Source: an uncultured virus (IMG/VR IMGVR_UViG_3300006112_000009) (Duplodnaviria > Heunggongvirae > Uroviricota > Caudoviricetes). From it: a stretch of DNA of 64,000 bases. Within the stretch, counting starts at the first letter, position 1. Every line of letters starts with the position of its first letter. A program made the position numbers and the translations under genes. The notes under the pieces were generated by a model. That model did no database searches. It was not told the DNA's origin and saw only the letters and a list, made by a program, of their open reading frames with translations. The stretch lies in the IMG/VR virus record IMGVR_UViG_3300006112_000009. One strand, written 5' to 3'. Of the stretch, positions 12,874 through 28,088 are shown one piece after another.

Positions 12874-12951
12874 TTCTAGTACGACTCACATAGGGTGAGT
12901 TTTATGCGGAAGTTCAACCGCGTAGTGGGTTAGAACCCACATTTTCTAGGA
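12874..12951 (+). promoter_or_regulatory. structured 5' leader (three hairpins plus a closing stem over the RBS)
   Basis: GACTCAC/GTGAGTT, TATGCGG/CCGCGTA, GTGGGT/ACCCAC, closed by TTCTAG/CTAGGA; directly after GATAAATA 12866-12873. Confidence 0.6.
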
Positions 12952-12959
12952 GAAATAAA

Positions 12960-14186
12960 ATGGGACGTCCTTTAGCAAAAAGATATTTCGGTAATCTTAA
13001 CACAAACGATACCGGAGATAATGCATCAACATATTCACGTAGTTCACACGAAGGTATCGGTGGTCAAGGTGTTGCAAGTTACGGTACAATCGTAGCAGGT
13101 TCAGGTTGGACAACAATTCCAACTGTTTCATTCAGTGGCCCAACATTGCCAGGTGGACAATCAGTTGCTGGTACAGTACATTACAAAGCATTATCATTCG
13201 CTACAACAGCAAATGGTTCAGGTTATAACGTAGGTGATGTAGTAGAAGTACACACAGGTACTGCAACTACGAAGGCACGTGCAACAGTTGCGGCTATTAC
13301 TGTTGTTACAGCTACAAAACATTTAAACACAGGTACAGGTTACGCTGATGGTGATACAATCACATTTAGTTCAGGTTGGTCAACACCTTGTGTATTGCGT
13401 GTAAATCGTCCAGGTGGCGGTACAGGTAGCGCTGATAACTATACTATTGTTAACCCAGGTGTTCGTAGTTCAGCAGCTCCAACTAACCCAGTATCTCCAG
13501 ACAGTCACACTGGTTCTGGTTCTGGTGCAACTGTTGACTTTGTATTCGGTGCATATTCATTCAGCGCACCAACAGTAGCAGGTGATTACACTACATTCCC
13601 AAGCACAAATAGTGCAGGTGTTTTAGATTCAATTAGTCCAGCAACTGGTACAGGTGCTAAAGCTGATATCACTATGGGTCTATTGAGCATTACCGTAACA
13701 GATCCAGGTTCTGGATACTTAAATGCTGCCGATGCAGCAGTAAGTTTCAGTGGTTCAACTGGTGCAGCAGCTACCGCAGTATTGACTACTGACGATGGTA
13801 CACCATATGATGCAGAAGCATTCCCAGCTATCATTGCATACGCTAAGACTACTTCAGGTGGCACAAACCAAATCGCTGACATCAATCGTCAACGTGGTTC
13901 ACATCGTTATTACGTAACTACAGCAGATGGTTCAGCAGTTTGCCAATTGAAGACAACTGGTGCAGCAAGTTCTGCAGGTGAAATGACTATCAAGGCAACT
14001 GATAGTGCTGGTAAAACATATTATGTTCAAAAATTAACAGCACACAGAGCAACACTAGTTCCTTATGGATCAAGCGGTTGGAACTTCCCATTGGTAAATT
14101 CTCAACCTCAATCAGTTCACTGGACTTTCAGTACTGGCGATACAACATACAACAGTGCTACATCTGTTGTTATCGAAAACGCTTAA
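12960..14186 (+). CDS. virion structural protein (G/T/S-rich, beta-repeat)
   Basis: MGRPL start, repeated ...GSGY... motifs, own late promoter, AGGAG RBS and terminator. Confidence 0.6.
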   Translation: MGRPLAKRYFGNLNTNDTGDNASTYSRSSHEGIGGQGVASYGTIVAGSGWTTIPTVSFSGPTLPGGQSVAGTVHYKALSFATTANGSGYNVGDVVEVHTGTATTKARATVAAITVVTATKHLNTGTGYADGDTITFSSGWSTPCVLRVNRPGGGTGSADNYTIVNPGVRSSAAPTNPVSPDSHTGSGSGATVDFVFGAYSFSAPTVAGDYTTFPSTNSAGVLDSISPATGTGAKADITMGLLSITVTDPGSGYLNAADAAVSFSGSTGAAATAVLTTDDGTPYDAEAFPAIIAYAKTTSGGTNQIADINRQRGSHRYYVTTADGSAVCQLKTTGAASSAGEMTIKATDSAGKTYYVQKLTAHRATLVPYGSSGWNFPLVNSQPQSVHWTFSTGDTTYNSATSVVIENA

Positions 14187-19996: not shown

Positions 19997-20208
19997 TTGA
20001 TCCTAGATCACAGGAAGAAAAATTAGCAAGAATGGATGAGTTGATGAAGCCAATTGAGCAACAACTTATGATGTGTGATGACTATAAAGACCAATTAATG
20101 ATGGCTAGTTCTATGATGGTCACTGCTTGCGATTTATTTACTCAACATATGGGTACAGAAGGTGCGAAAGAAATGTTTACAATTTTTATGGAGAGAAATT
20201 TCAAATGA
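19993..20208 (+). CDS. small hypothetical protein
   Basis: 71 aa, ATGA overlaps on both sides. Confidence 0.6.
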   Translation: MIDPRSQEEKLARMDELMKPIEQQLMMCDDYKDQLMMASSMMVTACDLFTQHMGTEGAKEMFTIFMERNFK

Positions 20209-20642
20209 CAAATCAAGTTGATTTAACAAAATATCAGGGGTTCGTTGAGGCAGTTACTAGTCAGGCTAGTAATGACTTAACAACATTTATGAATCGCTTA
20301 GATTACCTAGATGGTAACTATGTTGAAAACGAGGGTCATGGACCTGATATCAATGTCCCGTTGCTTATCACTGCATGTATGGGTCTTGCCGCAGAAAGTG
20401 GCGAGTTCATTGAAGTGCCCAAGAAAATCATTTTTCAGGGTAAGCCGCTCGATGACGCAGCAGTATTTCATATGATTAGGGAGTTAGGAGATGTGATGTG
20501 GTACTGGATCAATGCATGCCGTGCATTGAATCTTGACCCTAACGAAGTTATTGCAGAGAATGTTAAGAAACTAGAAAGTCGCTATCCAGGTGGCACTTTT
20601 GATGTTCACTATTCTGAAAATCGTCAACAGGGTGATATTTAA
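20205..20642 (+). CDS. MazG-like nucleoside triphosphate pyrophosphohydrolase
   Basis: GLAAESGEF.E..KK, ELGDVMWY, N..KL..RYP motifs. Confidence 0.85.
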   Translation: MTNQVDLTKYQGFVEAVTSQASNDLTTFMNRLDYLDGNYVENEGHGPDINVPLLITACMGLAAESGEFIEVPKKIIFQGKPLDDAAVFHMIRELGDVMWYWINACRALNLDPNEVIAENVKKLESRYPGGTFDVHYSENRQQGDI

Positions 20643-20645
20643 TTA

Positions 20646-20667
20646 AAACGGGCCACAGTGCCCGTTT
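20646..20667 (+). terminator. hairpin, probable terminator or processing signal
   Basis: AAACGGGC-CACAGT-GCCCGTTT. Confidence 0.6.
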
Positions 20668-20673
20668 ATTATT

Positions 20674-21100
20674 AGTTTATAGGTGTCCCAGTACCTTGAA
20701 ATATGGCTATAACCCGTCCTAACCACAGTGACGGTAGAGTGATGACGACTAACATCTAATTTATAGGACTACCCATTTGGATGCCTAAACGCCTTGCCAC
20801 TGCAAGTAACGTTTCCTATATCTTAACGGTTGTGATGTAGTAATACACTTTAAGAATGCCAAAAGATAGTAATTGCGATAGATACTTTTGGGCTGGATAA
20901 CACTTCCCGATGAATCATGTGTTATCATAACAGCGAATGCAGCAAATTCCCTTTACGGGTTAGTGAGACATAGACAATCCTCCACTGTAATATTTGAATT
21001 CATCGTCGCCTAAGTTCCTCAAGAATGTTTTGGTGTGGTAGGTTTATATCTACTCGCCATTGCCTAAGAATATATAACACAACTCCGATACAAATAAACT
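20674..21100 (+). ncRNA. candidate large structured non-coding RNA (about 430 nt)
   Basis: no credible ORF; ends pair (AGTTTAT..GTGTC / GATAC..ATAAACT); nested long-range and local helices; G-U pairs favour the + strand. Confidence 0.6.
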
Positions 21101-21138
21101 CATAGAATTTCCGATAAATAATGTATCCGGAGAGTATA

Positions 21139-21891
21139 ATGAACCTACAAGAATTAAAAGATCAATTATTTCAAAACTTACGATATCGTATGGGTGAAGG
21201 TATAGTTGATATTGAAGCAGATCCAGAGCATTTTGAAGCAGCATATCAATATGCCATTAAAATTTATCGTCAAAGAGCGCAAAATGCTACTATGGAATCA
21301 TACACATTAATGAGCCTAGCGGAGCATGTTGATACATATACCCTACCACAAGAATTTATTAATGTCCGTCAAGTTTTCCGCAGAACGATTGGGTTAGAAA
21401 CTGGCCCTAGTTCTAGTAGCTTTGACCCATTCTCCAGTGCTATCTTAAACACATACCTATTGAATTATAACTACTCAGGTGGATTAGCTACATACGATTT
21501 CTATGCAGGATATATTGAATTAGCCGCACGTATGTTTGGTGGTTATATGATTTATACCTTTAACCCTGTTACTAAACAGATTCGTTTAGTTAGAGATACA
21601 AAGGGATCGGGGGAACAGATTCTTGTTTGGGCTGACATACAACGCCCTGAAGCTGAACTATTACAAGATCCGGGTGCAGGTGTTTGGTTGGGTGACTTTA
21701 CATTATCAACTATCAAAATGATTATCGGTGAAGCACGTGAAAAATTTGGAACTATTGCAGGCCCTGGTGGGGGATCCACATTGAATGGTACCGCATTAAA
21801 AGCTGAAGGTCTAGCACAACAAAATCAACTGTTAGAAGATTTGAAACGCTATGTTGACTATTCACAACCACTAACATGGGTCATTGGATAA
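21139..21891 (+). CDS. neck/head-tail adaptor protein (T4 gp13-like)
   Basis: late promoter 21113-21120; RMG...VD.E, GEAR.KF..IAGPGG...LNG motifs. Confidence 0.75.
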   Translation: MNLQELKDQLFQNLRYRMGEGIVDIEADPEHFEAAYQYAIKIYRQRAQNATMESYTLMSLAEHVDTYTLPQEFINVRQVFRRTIGLETGPSSSSFDPFSSAILNTYLLNYNYSGGLATYDFYAGYIELAARMFGGYMIYTFNPVTKQIRLVRDTKGSGEQILVWADIQRPEAELLQDPGAGVWLGDFTLSTIKMIIGEAREKFGTIAGPGGGSTLNGTALKAEGLAQQNQLLEDLKRYVDYSQPLTWVIG

Positions 21892-24515: not shown

Positions 24516-27500
24516 ATGGCATTATCATCACCGGGCATTGAGGTAAGTATTAAGGATCAAAGTCAATATTTACCAGCAGCCTCAAGTTCAGTTCCGCTAT
24601 TAGTTGTAGCAACTGCACAGAATAAAGCAAATGCAACAAGCACAACTGGTGCTGTAGCTGCAGGAACAATCAAAGCAAACGCTAACAAACTATATCAAGT
24701 TACAAGTCAAAAAGACATTCTTACATTGTTTGGTAGTCCATTCTTCTATAAAACTTCTAACGGTACTCCTATTCAAGGGTATGAGTTAAATGAATATGGT
24801 TTATTGGCAGCATGGTCATTAATGGGCGTAACAAATAGTTGCTATATCTTACGTGCAGACGTTGATCTAGGATCATTAGTGGGTACATTAAATCGTCCAG
24901 TCGGTCAGCCTGTAGGTGGAACATATTGGTTGAACACGACATCAAGTACATGGGGAATTTTTGAATTCAATGCAACTTCTGGTGTCTTCAATAGTATCAA
25001 CCCTATCGTTATCACTGACACAGCATATATTGATACAAACTCAGGATATCCTAAAGATTCGGTAGGTTCAATTGGTTCTTATGCAGTTTTACCTGATCAA
25101 ATTTCAAATGGTTTGTCAAATAACACAGGTACATATTTCTACAAAACATATCTAAACACTTGGGAAATTTTAGGATCACAAGGATGGAAATCTGGTATCC
25201 CAACAATCGTAGGAGCTGCAAGCAATCCTTCACTAAGCTCAGGTGCATTCAGCATTAACATTAACAACTTGTTCTCACGCACAATTTCTATCAGCAATGG
25301 TGATACAGTTTATACTGTCGCTAGTGCTATTAATAATTTGGGAATTGGTGATTTAACCGCGCGTGTTGATTCTTCAAGCAGACTAGTTATCAGCGTATCA
25401 TCAGTACGTACTAACAGTTCATTGACTTTGGCTAATACATCAAATACACCATTGACAGATTTGGGAATTACTTCAGGTCAAACATACTATGCTGCTGACG
25501 CAGTATTTGCTCCAAGTTCAGGTATGCCTCTATGGACAAATAGTCAAGCTGCACCTCACCCAACTGGTTCTGTATGGGTAAAAACAAGTGCTACTGGTTC
25601 AGGTCTAAACACTGTTCTATCGCAATACAGTGCAACAAATGAAGCATTTGCAAGTGTTGCAGTAAACACATTTGATACATTAGATACTGTATTACCGGGA
25701 TTAGATACATCAGGTGGTCAATCTATTCCAACAGGAACAGTTGTGCAAGTTACTGGTAACCAAACATATGGTCCTGCAGGTATCGCTTACTATGTAAGAG
25801 GTAATACAGGCGCAACTGTTGCAATTGGTACAGCTACAAACGTAAGTGTTTCTTCTCCAGGAAAAACATTAAACGTAGCAGTAACTACACCAGGTGTAAG
25901 CACATTCAGCACACAATATAGCTTCACATTCCACGGTGATGCAGAAACTTTTGTAACTGCATGGCAAGCTACAAATATTCCAAATACAACAGCTTCTATT
26001 GGTGCTGCAGGTGAAATTATTTTAACTCACACATTGGGTGGTGATATTCTTCTTAGTGATTTAGGTACTTCTGGTATTTCTAACGGATTGATTTCTCAAT
26101 TAGGTTTCACTAATGGAACAAACGCAATCCCTCACCCAATCACATTTACTACTACAACAGCTACACATACAACTAACGGGGCAGGTAGTGGTGCAACATT
26201 CAGCATTACAAACAAAGTTGGATACTATACATTCAACCTAACTTCAGGTGGTCATAACTATGCTGTTGGTGACTTGTTAACATTCGTTGGTTCTGAACTA
26301 GCAGGCGTTGATACAGTAAACAATTTAGTATTAAGCGTACAAACAGTAAGTGGTGGTGTAATTACATCAGTTGCTTATCATTCAGGTATGCCTAAAGCTA
26401 ACTATGCTACAAGATTGAGTAACTGGAATGAGTTGTATTATACAGCTAGCCTAGGCGCTCCTGCAACTGCACCAACAGACGGAACAACATGGTTCTACTC
26501 AACTGCAAGTCAAGTTGATATCATGGTTAACAAACACGGTGTATGGAAAGGTTATGGTAACGTAGCATTTGACAATAACGGTCATCCAGCGAATAGCGGT
26601 TCTGTTGGTCAAACTAACTCAACAGGCGTTATCGTTGCAACTAATGCTCCTACAACACAACTTGATGGCAGCAACTTAGTTCCAGGTGATCTATGGTTAG
26701 ATTCTAGTGATTTAGAAAACTATCCAATGATTAGTCGTTGGCAAATCGTTGATGGTACTCCACAATGGGTACTAATTGACACCACAGACCAAACAAGTCA
26801 CAGTGGTATCTTGTTTGCAGATGCTCGTTGGGCAGTAGATGGAAGTGTTGATCCTATCAGCGATCCATATTCATCAATTGCATCACTATGGTCAAGTGAC
26901 TACTTAGACCTAGATGCTCCTGATGCTACATTGTATCCACAAGGTATGTTGTTGTTTAACACACGCCGTTCAGGATATAATGTTAAGAAATTTGTTGCCA
27001 ACTATTTCACACCAGGTAACTTTACAAGTGCAGGAGCATTCAATTCAGGTGCACCGGCAACGATTGGAAATCTACCGCAATACACATACACATGGGTTTC
27101 AGCAAGTGGATTGAAAACTGACGGTTCAGCATACATGGGTCGTAAGGCACAACGTGTAATGGTCGTAGAAGCATTGAAAACAGCGATTGGTACTAATATG
27201 AGTATTCGTGAAGAAGATACATTCTTCAACTTGATTGCTTGCCCAGGGTATCCTGAATTGCAACCAGACATGGTTACATTGAATAATGACCGTAACAACA
27301 CAGCTTATATCTTAGGTGATACACCAATGCGTTTAGCTGATGATGAAACAGCAATTACAAATTGGGCAACTAATGCTATGACAGTTGGTTCAACTGGCGA
27401 AGATGGTTTAGTTACACGTGACGAATATATGGGTATCTTCTATCCAAGTGGTTTAACAACAGACTTGACCGGTGCAAGTGTTGTAGTTCCAGCAAGTCAT

Positions 27501-28088
27501 ATGATGTTGCGTACATTCTTACAGAATGATGCTGTATCATATCCTTGGTTGGCTGCTGCTGGCACACGCCGTGGTACAATCACTAATGCAACAGCAATTG
27601 GATATATTGATGCTGCAACAGGGGAGTTCATCTCTATCAAGAACCGTCAAACAGTTCGTGATGCGTTGTACACTAACCAAATCAACCCATTGGCATACTT
27701 CAGTGGTGTTGGATTGTTGAACTACGGTAACAAGTCTAGTTATGAGTCAAACACATCATTAGATCGTACAAACGTTGGTCGTTTAGTAGCTTATATTCGT
27801 TATAAACTACAAACTGCAACTCGTCCGTTCGTATTTGAACCAAACGATGCACTAACTCGTAGTCAAATCGCAGGGGTTGTACAATCATTGTTTGTTGACT
27901 TAGTTGGCAAACGTGGTCTATATGACTATATTGTTGTTTGTGATGAAACAAACAACACACCAGCAAGAATTGATGCAAATGAACTTTGGATTGATGTTGC
28001 GATTGAGCCAGTGAAAGCTGCTGAGTTTATCTATATTCCAGTGAGAATTGTGAATACAGGTGGAATTGCTGCATTAGCAACTGCATAA
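24516..28088 (+). CDS. contractile tail sheath protein with large insertions
   Basis: LSSPGIEV start; C-terminal PWLAAAG..RG, LY...INP, FVFEPND, VCDETNNT..RID.NEL..D..I.P.KAAEFIYIP. Confidence 0.93.
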   Translation: MALSSPGIEVSIKDQSQYLPAASSSVPLLVVATAQNKANATSTTGAVAAGTIKANANKLYQVTSQKDILTLFGSPFFYKTSNGTPIQGYELNEYGLLAAWSLMGVTNSCYILRADVDLGSLVGTLNRPVGQPVGGTYWLNTTSSTWGIFEFNATSGVFNSINPIVITDTAYIDTNSGYPKDSVGSIGSYAVLPDQISNGLSNNTGTYFYKTYLNTWEILGSQGWKSGIPTIVGAASNPSLSSGAFSININNLFSRTISISNGDTVYTVASAINNLGIGDLTARVDSSSRLVISVSSVRTNSSLTLANTSNTPLTDLGITSGQTYYAADAVFAPSSGMPLWTNSQAAPHPTGSVWVKTSATGSGLNTVLSQYSATNEAFASVAVNTFDTLDTVLPGLDTSGGQSIPTGTVVQVTGNQTYGPAGIAYYVRGNTGATVAIGTATNVSVSSPGKTLNVAVTTPGVSTFSTQYSFTFHGDAETFVTAWQATNIPNTTASIGAAGEIILTHTLGGDILLSDLGTSGISNGLISQLGFTNGTNAIPHPITFTTTTATHTTNGAGSGATFSITNKVGYYTFNLTSGGHNYAVGDLLTFVGSELAGVDTVNNLVLSVQTVSGGVITSVAYHSGMPKANYATRLSNWNELYYTASLGAPATAPTDGTTWFYSTASQVDIMVNKHGVWKGYGNVAFDNNGHPANSGSVGQTNSTGVIVATNAPTTQLDGSNLVPGDLWLDSSDLENYPMISRWQIVDGTPQWVLIDTTDQTSHSGILFADARWAVDGSVDPISDPYSSIASLWSSDYLDLDAPDATLYPQGMLLFNTRRSGYNVKKFVANYFTPGNFTSAGAFNSGAPATIGNLPQYTYTWVSASGLKTDGSAYMGRKAQRVMVVEALKTAIGTNMSIREEDTFFNLIACPGYPELQPDMVTLNNDRNNTAYILGDTPMRLADDETAITNWATNAMTVGSTGEDGLVTRDEYMGIFYPSGLTTDLTGASVVVPASHMMLRTFLQNDAVSYPWLAAAGTRRGTITNATAIGYIDAATGEFISIKNRQTVRDALYTNQINPLAYFSGVGLLNYGNKSSYESNTSLDRTNVGRLVAYIRYKLQTATRPFVFEPNDALTRSQIAGVVQSLFVDLVGKRGLYDYIVVCDETNNTPARIDANELWIDVAIEPVKAAEFIYIPVRIVNTGGIAALATA

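Follow-up and report, generated by a model that had tools for sequence, protein, structure and literature searches.

Few large RNAs are known to have a tertiary architecture that is both intricate and strongly conserved. Those described proved to be ribozymes, the cores of ribonucleoproteins or, in recent work, cages made of RNA only. In this article we describe a conserved non-coding element of about 408 nucleotides (nt) in a 64,000-nt stretch of DNA (the window) from an uncultured freshwater jumbo myophage (IMG/VR record IMGVR_UViG_3300006112_000009). The element occupies positions 20668-21075 on the + strand and is intergenic, lying between a MazG-like gene and the gene of a neck (head-tail adaptor) protein. 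The best reading of the sequence comparisons is that it stands for a new class of large phage RNAs with pseudoknots, a class that is well supported and not represented in Rfam.

Several described systems resemble it in part. Like the ROOL and GOLLD RNAs (RF03087 and RF01998), the window RNA consists of hundreds of nucleotides with many helices and pseudoknots, is phage-borne with a patchy and mainly metagenomic distribution, and has no dedicated protein partner. The structures of GOLLD and ROOL are the subject of a cryo-electron microscopy (cryo-EM) study whose title names RNA-only complexes (10.1101/2024.12.08.627333), and the title of a further article (PMC12585600) speaks of homo-oligomeric complexes. 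In contrast to these RNAs, the window RNA matches neither model, is smaller (about 410 nt), does not stand beside transfer RNA (tRNA) genes, and has so far been met only in contigs of uncultured freshwater-type jumbo myophages. With phage group I introns it shares the size, a compact pseudoknotted core, GNRA-capped peripheral hairpins and a site-precise presence or absence among related phages; it differs by its intergenic position, by another pseudoknot topology and by the lack of an Rfam intron match, of a recognisable P1 carrying a U.G splice site and of a G-binding P7. Like the phi29 pRNA, it is a phage-encoded structured RNA without an open reading frame (ORF) whose loop pairings could be intermolecular, and in most members its gene is found beside head-tail connector genes; however, it is more than twice as long, has no homology to the pRNA, belongs to another phage group and has lost the neck association in divergent members. 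The candidate structured RNAs catalogued from IMG/VR (PMC10690425) come from the same data source and are likewise covariation-supported intergenic motifs of uncultured phages. The window RNA may be among the entries of that catalogue; two signature motifs were not found in six of its supplementary files (files 1 and 2 lay outside the search). Literature searches, also with signature motifs, returned no description of the window RNA, and the motif search gave an unrelated primer match only.

Altogether 80 distinct full-length homologues (63 + 17, duplicates removed) were collected from uncultured phage contigs and metagenomes, with identities of 58-98% to the window. An invariant 19-mer taken from the DNA of the element matched 67 viral and 40 metagenome loci, and a second, degenerate motif returned 108 stretches, 76 of which fitted the family profile, 27 of these with variants of the 19-mer. 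The other 32 matches of the second motif were chance or coding sequence and were discarded, as were the 19-mer matches in three bacterial metagenome-assembled genomes and about ten metagenome contigs, where the similarity was confined to the word itself. The limits of conservation are at about 20668 and 21075, outside of which the loci could not be aligned. The unpaired loops and junctions are very strongly conserved across phages whose neck proteins share only about 70% identity. Comparison with GenBank phages by blastn, using the window element and two divergent members as queries, gave no match, and no likeness to the element was seen in the 261-nt gap that precedes the adaptor gene of an E. 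coli Asteriusvirus. The window itself carries one copy (nhmmer, 20666-21075).

A structural model with 95 pairs, distributed over 21 helix segments, was constructed from RNAalifold, a column-pair scan of our own and inspection, and it comprises about 17 helices and three pseudoknots (PK0, the H-type knot S1/S2, and PK2). The pairs were counted on a plain MAFFT alignment of 63 sequences (A2) that had not been fitted to the structure; the model was derived from the same sequences on which it was counted, which favours the model, nonetheless the margin was large. Paired cells amounted to 90.4%, as against 33-44% when the partners were slid by 1-3 columns. Pairs changing on both sides numbered 64 of 95 (17-26 in the slid models, 44.1 +/- 2.8 in shuffles) and compensatory cells 666 (66-157 and 185 +/- 14 respectively), and none of the 500 shuffles equalled the model on any of five measures. 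Each of the three pseudoknots shows several compensatory pair types, and PK0 and PK2 occur in several independent compensatory versions, including wholesale replacement in divergent members. Pairing in the MAFFT columns was low for H4 (48.6%), for the inner stem 20793-806 (72.8%) and for H11 (66%), because length variation misaligns the columns in these places; folded alone, the H4 segment gave a single hairpin in all 56 distinct versions, with many and different stem sequences. The excess of G.U over A.C cells (293 versus about 106) points to the + strand, on which the flanking genes are also encoded, and G-U pairs had led the first-pass annotation, made from this one sequence, to the same strand. 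That annotation had seen here a large structured phage RNA of a rare or new class and had suggested looking for covariation among homologues; conservation and covariation across 63-80 homologues, together with the Rfam null described below, support its proposal.

Following the fold from 5' to 3' (Table 1), the tail of the RNA enters PK0, variants of which are UUGGUC/GACCAA, CUGAUUA/UAAUCAG and UGACCG/CGGUCA. In the H-type pseudoknot 3 of 4 pairs of S1 and all 4 of S2 change on both sides, the variants including GGGC/GCCC, AAGU/ACUU and CCGC/GCGG. The three-way junction H5 contains a mini-hairpin (20773-80) and a hairpin (20788-20813), and its junction strands, GGACUACC and GAUGC.UAAAC, are near-invariant. 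The loop of H7 is likewise near-invariant (19 nt, AUAGUAAUUGCGAUAGAUA), and H8 adjoins H7 directly, without a linker. PK2 was found in divergent members as UUAUGAAAG/CUUUCAUAA and CCGUGGUGG/CCGCCACGG. Within H9, the 12-nt loop ACAUAGACAAUC (20968-79) of the hairpin 20962-86 does not vary among 63 sequences and hardly varies among 80. The conserved loops and junctions, the three pseudoknots, the direct helix abutments and the GNRA-capped optional arms are features of large RNAs whose tertiary core is compact and which possess a specific working surface. In such a core H7 would be stacked on H8, and H9 on PK2. The working surface may lie in the unpaired loops that do not vary and in the CCU(C)AAGAAU motif with its two copies; it would bind a conserved partner of host or phage origin, or link one copy of the RNA with another.

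Some variation was seen beside this conserved frame. Positions 20969 and 20974 of the 12-nt loop change together (C/A in 71 sequences, U/U in 6), which could reflect a non-canonical pair or shared ancestry. The loci L138, L084, L082, L169 and their relatives (L numbers denote individual loci) carry an extra hairpin within H4, often with a GUAA-type loop, and keep the partner sequence of PK0. The versions of H7 and of the optional hairpin in the window resemble those of distant members and not those of the nearest relative, L140, which suggests modular exchange between RNA variants.

Table 1. Features of the RNA element and of its surroundings (positions in the window; RBS, ribosome-binding site)
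Feature	Position	Strand	Basis or remark
Conserved RNA core, about 408 nt	20668-21075	+	nhmmer 20666-21075; alignments A1, A2; 95-pair model
PK0 5' arm, tail UUAGUU, pairs with H4 apical loop	20672-20677	+	5/6 pairs change on both sides
PK0 3' arm, in H4 loop	20747-20752	+	column-pair scan, model count
H4 stem	20741-44/20753-56	+	hairpin in 56/56 distinct segments
H-type pseudoknot	20681-20706	+	S1 AGGU 20681-84/ACCU 20693-96, interleaved S2 20688-91/20703-06
Hairpin H3, CCGUC/GACGG	20714-20734	+	99.4% of cells paired; 2 pairs compensatory
Three-way junction H5, UAUAGGA/UCCUAUA (20762-68/20814-20)	20762-20820	+	99.8% paired; 5/7 pairs compensatory
Optional peripheral hairpin, GUAA (GNRA-type) tetraloop cap	20836-20847	+	in 18/63; 100% paired; 3/4 pairs compensatory
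Hairpin H7, CCAAAAG/CUUUUGG	20859-20891	+	99.8% paired; 6/7 pairs compensatory
Hairpin H8, GCUG/CAGC plus GAUAACAC/GUGUUAUC	20892-20934	+	10/12 pairs compensatory
PK2 5' arm, H8 apical loop CGAUGAAU	20908-20915	+	98.2% paired; 5/8 pairs compensatory
PK2 3' arm AUUCAUCG, one base 3' of H9	20998-21005	+	column-pair scan, model count
Three-way junction H9, CAAA/UUUG (20943-46/20993-96)	20943-20996	+	encloses hairpins 20949-59 and 20962-86
Conserved single-stranded motif CCUCAAGAAU, first copy	21017-21026	+	alignment A2
Hairpin H11; 3' arm AUCUACUCGCC invariant, 5' arm variable	21031-21059	+	66% paired; changes one-sided
Conserved motif CCUAAGAAU, second copy; 3' limit of conservation	21063-21071	+	alignment A2
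MazG-like pyrophosphatase gene	20127-20642	+	PHROG 229 E 1.8e-46; Pfam MazG E 6.8e-08; upstream neighbour
Terminator-like G+C hairpin downstream of MazG, with a U-rich tail extending into the start of the conserved RNA	20646-20667	+	sequence scan
Late-promoter-like GATAAATA (21113-20), RBS GGAGAG (21129-34), probable neck ATG (21139)	21113-21141	+	downstream of RNA
Head-tail adaptor (neck) protein gene, as listed	21121-21891	+	downstream neighbour
Tail sheath gene	24516-28088		

The local hairpins of the first-pass annotation largely reappeared in this model: those at 20714-34 (CCGTC/GACGG), 20762-820 (TATAGGA/TCCTATA with two inner hairpins), 20859-91 (CCAAAAG/CTTTTGG) and 20892-934 (GCTG-GATAACAC/GTGTTATC-CAGC) hold and covary, and the one at 21031-59 holds as well, with one-sided changes only. 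Its nested long-range helices had to be given up. The outermost (20674-87/21087-100) is a helix of about 7 base pairs in the window, its 3' arm lies past the conserved block and its 5' arm pairs with the H4 loop at 20747-52; CTTGA/TCAAG combines a variable 5' arm with an invariant TCAAG, without compensation; and the arms of GTGATGACGA/TCATCGTCGC are used in the local hairpin GATG/CATC (56 of 56 distinct segments) and in the pseudoknot of the H8 loop. TCTTAA/TTAAGA (20821-55) merely brackets an optional insertion that is missing from 45 of 63 sequences, and the suggested pseudoknot ACAGTG/CACTGT loses its 3' arm to the covarying hairpin 20962-86. Further pairings of our own search were dropped as well. 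A 5'/3' closing helix from RNAalifold (AGGUA/UGCCU) gave way to the local S1, since in divergent members S1 covaries and the distal pairing breaks down; a pairing of the H4 loop with GUUG (20830-32) gave way to the 5' tail, the covarying partner of that loop; and 5' GUCUAU with the invariant loop AUAGAC showed many mismatches without compensation.

The element is not a gene for a protein. The first-pass annotation had called this intergenic space the largest ORF-free gap: 20643-21120 indeed has no ORF of at least 100 amino acids (aa) on either strand, but positions 1-754 of the window are likewise without one. No reading frame is conserved among the members, where the longest stop-free runs were 40-96 codons on differing strands. 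No ORF is conserved under genetic code 11, and when the conserved core was translated by code 4, or with TAG taken as Q, it contained no + strand ORF of at least 60 aa; the single + frame listed for code 4 (21078-21260) is situated outside the core and extends into the neck gene. A 96-aa frame in L071 was considered spurious, its tblastn matches in other loci being fragmentary and switching frame between loci.

Known RNA families did not account for the element either. All 4227 models of Rfam 15 (among them group I and II introns, RNase P, tmRNA, GOLLD, ROOL, OLE, HEARO, raiA, riboswitches and small ribozymes) were run against 20500-21300 up to E 10 and gave nothing relevant, only two noise matches of 16-17 bits against cut-offs of 48 and 70. 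The same search of six other loci (three divergent homologues and three chance matches of the 19-mer) gave one noise match up to E 1. ARAGORN detected no tRNA or tmRNA gene in the 64-kb window or in three related loci. These results agree with the earlier remark that hallmarks of tRNA, tmRNA, RNase P or introns could not be recognised.

Particular candidates were also considered by position and topology. A group I intron was rejected by location, the element being placed between the MazG stop and the neck promoter, where about 15 nt remain without it and both genes are intact either way, and also by topology, the fold having a 26-nt H-type knot and two loop-to-strand knots and no P3-P4-P6-P7-P3'-P8-P7' order. 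There are short motifs which may resemble the group I core, and the one pairing so suggested is contradicted by the covariation of H5; GACUA/UAGAC, a P7-like pairing, would need the A of GACUA, which is bound and covarying in H5 already. A hammerhead was rejected, C(U/C)GAUGAA being the H8 apical loop that pairs with 20998-21005, and no hammerhead of Rfam matched. The omega RNA, bridge RNA and retron msr, which would call for a gene of their cognate protein (IscB/TnpB, IS110 recombinase, reverse transcriptase) next to the RNA, were set aside on the neighbourhood, which consists of MazG, the neck protein or small ORFs without a Pfam match; no protein recurs beside the element and no tRNA is near it.

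The genomic position was compared in 80 related loci fetched with the neck protein as query (81 including the contig of the window). Both the MazG and the neck genes were present in the same order in 76 of the 81, and the gap between them had a bimodal length, with 43 of the 76 at 31-91 nt and 33 at 230-904 nt. In 11 of these 33 the insert is this RNA, with DNA 71-100% identical to the gap of the window. The other inserts include a 2OG-Fe(II) oxygenase (Pfam 1.1e-14; L015, L049), a small ORF with the motif PWKKWFAWYPVKI (L017, L041, L072) and a family of ORFs of 191-222 aa without a family assignment, which may be a free-standing endonuclease on the strength of a sub-threshold MutH match (E 0.0053). 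Judged by these gene orders, the site is a hypervariable cargo slot that is empty or filled by RNA or by protein morons.

PK0 places 20672-77 within the folded RNA, therefore transcription starts upstream of about 20668. Upstream of the element there is a MazG stop with a hairpin in the window, a MazG stop without a hairpin in L160, and elsewhere the stop of a small ORF a few bases off; hairpins similar to that of the window stand just 5' of the element in many, not all, homologous loci. The varied and mutually unrelated upstream DNA argues for co-transcription with the upstream gene, perhaps followed by processing, over a dedicated promoter. The RNA would thus be made from the + strand together with the upstream gene or through a leaky upstream hairpin.

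Downstream of the RNA, the sequence GATAAATA is probably the late promoter of this phage group: 13 sites were counted in the window, 12 of them on the + strand, versus 4.0 +/- 1.9 expected, and several (the sites include 5543, 7908, 9738, 21113, 28121, 31369, 34656 and 59073) are found just 5' of ORF starts. In the loci related to 21113, GATAAATA stands within a hairpin that also holds the ribosome-binding site (RBS), and the same promoter and RBS hairpin follows about 15 nt past the MazG stop in loci without the RNA. The listed start of the neck gene, ATG 21121, overlaps the promoter-like box. Neck homologues align from residue 7-8 only (tblastn), and the GGAGAG RBS precedes the in-frame ATG 21139, which is the probable true start. 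A further GATAAATA at 12866-73 lies directly 5' of a freshwater-2 motif (RF02980, 67.6 bits, E 3.7e-08; 12884-12962, +), the only gathering-level Rfam match in the window. Its 3' end overlaps the first bases of ORF 12960-14186, and this overlap, together with the promoter-like box before it, makes it look like the 5' leader of a late transcript; freshwater motifs are not mentioned in the main text of PMC5737381.

Taken together, the element is probably a real, self-contained and trans-acting structured RNA of a new class (about 410 nt), a judgement that we give with some reserve. Several results weigh against it. A terminator-like hairpin is situated directly upstream in the window and in many relatives, and if efficient it would block co-transcription, while a promoter of its own is represented by a weak sigma-70-like match only (9/12); the DNA upstream of the element is unrelated between the loci, and no convincing own promoter can be recognised there. 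Folding energy did not distinguish the element: the minimum free energy (MFE) of the single + strand sequence was -94.2 kcal/mol against -91.4 +/- 6.3 for shuffles (z -0.45; - strand z +0.70), that is, no better than shuffles, an outcome which the first-pass annotation had listed as counting against its own proposal. Furthermore the MFE fold recovered just 47 of the 77 nested consensus pairs. The structure is non-random by covariation and not by folding energy, and the comparative evidence outweighs the energy null. The position of the element, just upstream of the neck gene (50-150 nt) and co-oriented with it in 58 of 66 loci, would also be explained by a role in cis. It could then be an element of the late structural operon, namely a long leader or a processing or stability element on read-through into the neck gene that would govern the expression of this gene or the fate of its mRNA, and the scan, which found no terminator after the element in the window, and the failure to find an own promoter fit with this. 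Against a cis role, a late-promoter-like box and an RBS of its own precede the neck gene and are the same in RNA-less loci; the RNA is absent from 43 of 76 related loci; and no expression platform pairing with the RBS was seen. A riboswitch or cis leader had been rejected on similar grounds, there being no terminator 3' of the element, and a promoter-like box and a free RBS hairpin before the ATG. In a 277-kb relative (G002) the positions are about 30 kb for the RNA and 252 kb for the neck gene, and the two are about 55 kb apart; in one relative an extra gene separates the two, and in the most divergent group (L093, L099, L184) the RNA is located between unrelated small ORFs. The own promoter and RBS of the neck gene and the unlinked RNA of the divergent members therefore indicate a self-contained accessory RNA and not a leader, and on the sequence comparison we regard the cis explanation as rather unlikely. 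As an accessory RNA it would act in trans.

The RNA might be a new large ribozyme that cleaves or processes itself and thereby leaves the upstream transcript at its sharp 5' limit, or else a mobile, intron-like RNA inserted at a hot spot between genes. This agrees with a core of several pseudoknots whose junctions and loops are invariant, with the optional hairpins capped by GNRA loops, with the abrupt onset of conservation a few bases 5' of the tail paired into the fold (PK0), with the presence or absence at one precise site that also hosts the possible endonuclease-like ORF, and with a CUGAUGA-like loop sequence and the short motifs that may resemble the group I core; against these stand the lack of any Rfam ribozyme or intron match up to E 10, a position outside genes, crossing helices of loop-to-strand type instead of group I P3/P7, the use of the CUGAUGA stretch in a hairpin loop for PK2, and a size far above that of known self-cleavers. 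A ribozyme seems unlikely. By analogy with ROOL and GOLLD, the RNA could also form an RNA-only homo-oligomer, a ring or cage in which the 8-base-pair PK2 (or PK0) is made between molecules. Covariation is blind to the difference between intra- and intermolecular pairing, and the RNA is large, ornate, phage-borne and without an associated protein like those two, for which the titles of the cryo-EM study and of PMC12585600 speak of RNA-only and homo-oligomeric complexes; nevertheless it has no homology to ROOL, GOLLD or OLE and no tRNA genes nearby, and we judge this arrangement improbable. It is highly improbable that no RNA is involved, the conservation being incidental to a DNA-level element (a replication origin, a recombination or packaging site) or to a decayed gene. 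The site is a recombination-prone slot, which speaks for such an element, but 666 compensatory cells that keep Watson-Crick and G.U pairing in 21 helices with a + strand bias are the mark of a folded single strand, there is no conserved frame, and tblastn with the ORFs of the other slot occupants found only the frame-switching 96-aa frame. For the trans-acting RNA, binding of a conserved partner, self-assembly (its loop-to-strand pairings could be intermolecular) and catalysis are the candidate roles.

Regarding the wider genomic setting, the genus Asteriusvirus of E. coli jumbo phages contains the nearest cultured relatives as determined by the neck protein (only 37.8% identity), and the order adaptor, dNMP (deoxynucleoside monophosphate) kinase, sheath is common to these and to the phage of the window. 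The related metagenomic records that carry the element reach sizes of 267-364 kb. The neck homologue of the 277-kb relative (L195; G002:C1:252339-253094) has one in-frame TGA, which could be a sequencing error, the sign of a broken gene or stop-codon recoding.

A bolder reading, which we regard as doubtful, would see in the element the first representative of a novel class of large functional RNAs in jumbo phages, a ribozyme or an RNA assembling with itself by its loop-to-strand pairings, and a mobile "RNA moron" that competes with protein morons for one genomic slot. With 80 natural variants, a three-pseudoknot fold resolved by covariation and one copy in an accessory slot, the element is directly testable. 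It could disclose a new RNA function in the conflict between phage and host, and it means that the "moron" slots of phages can hold RNA cargo in place of protein genes.

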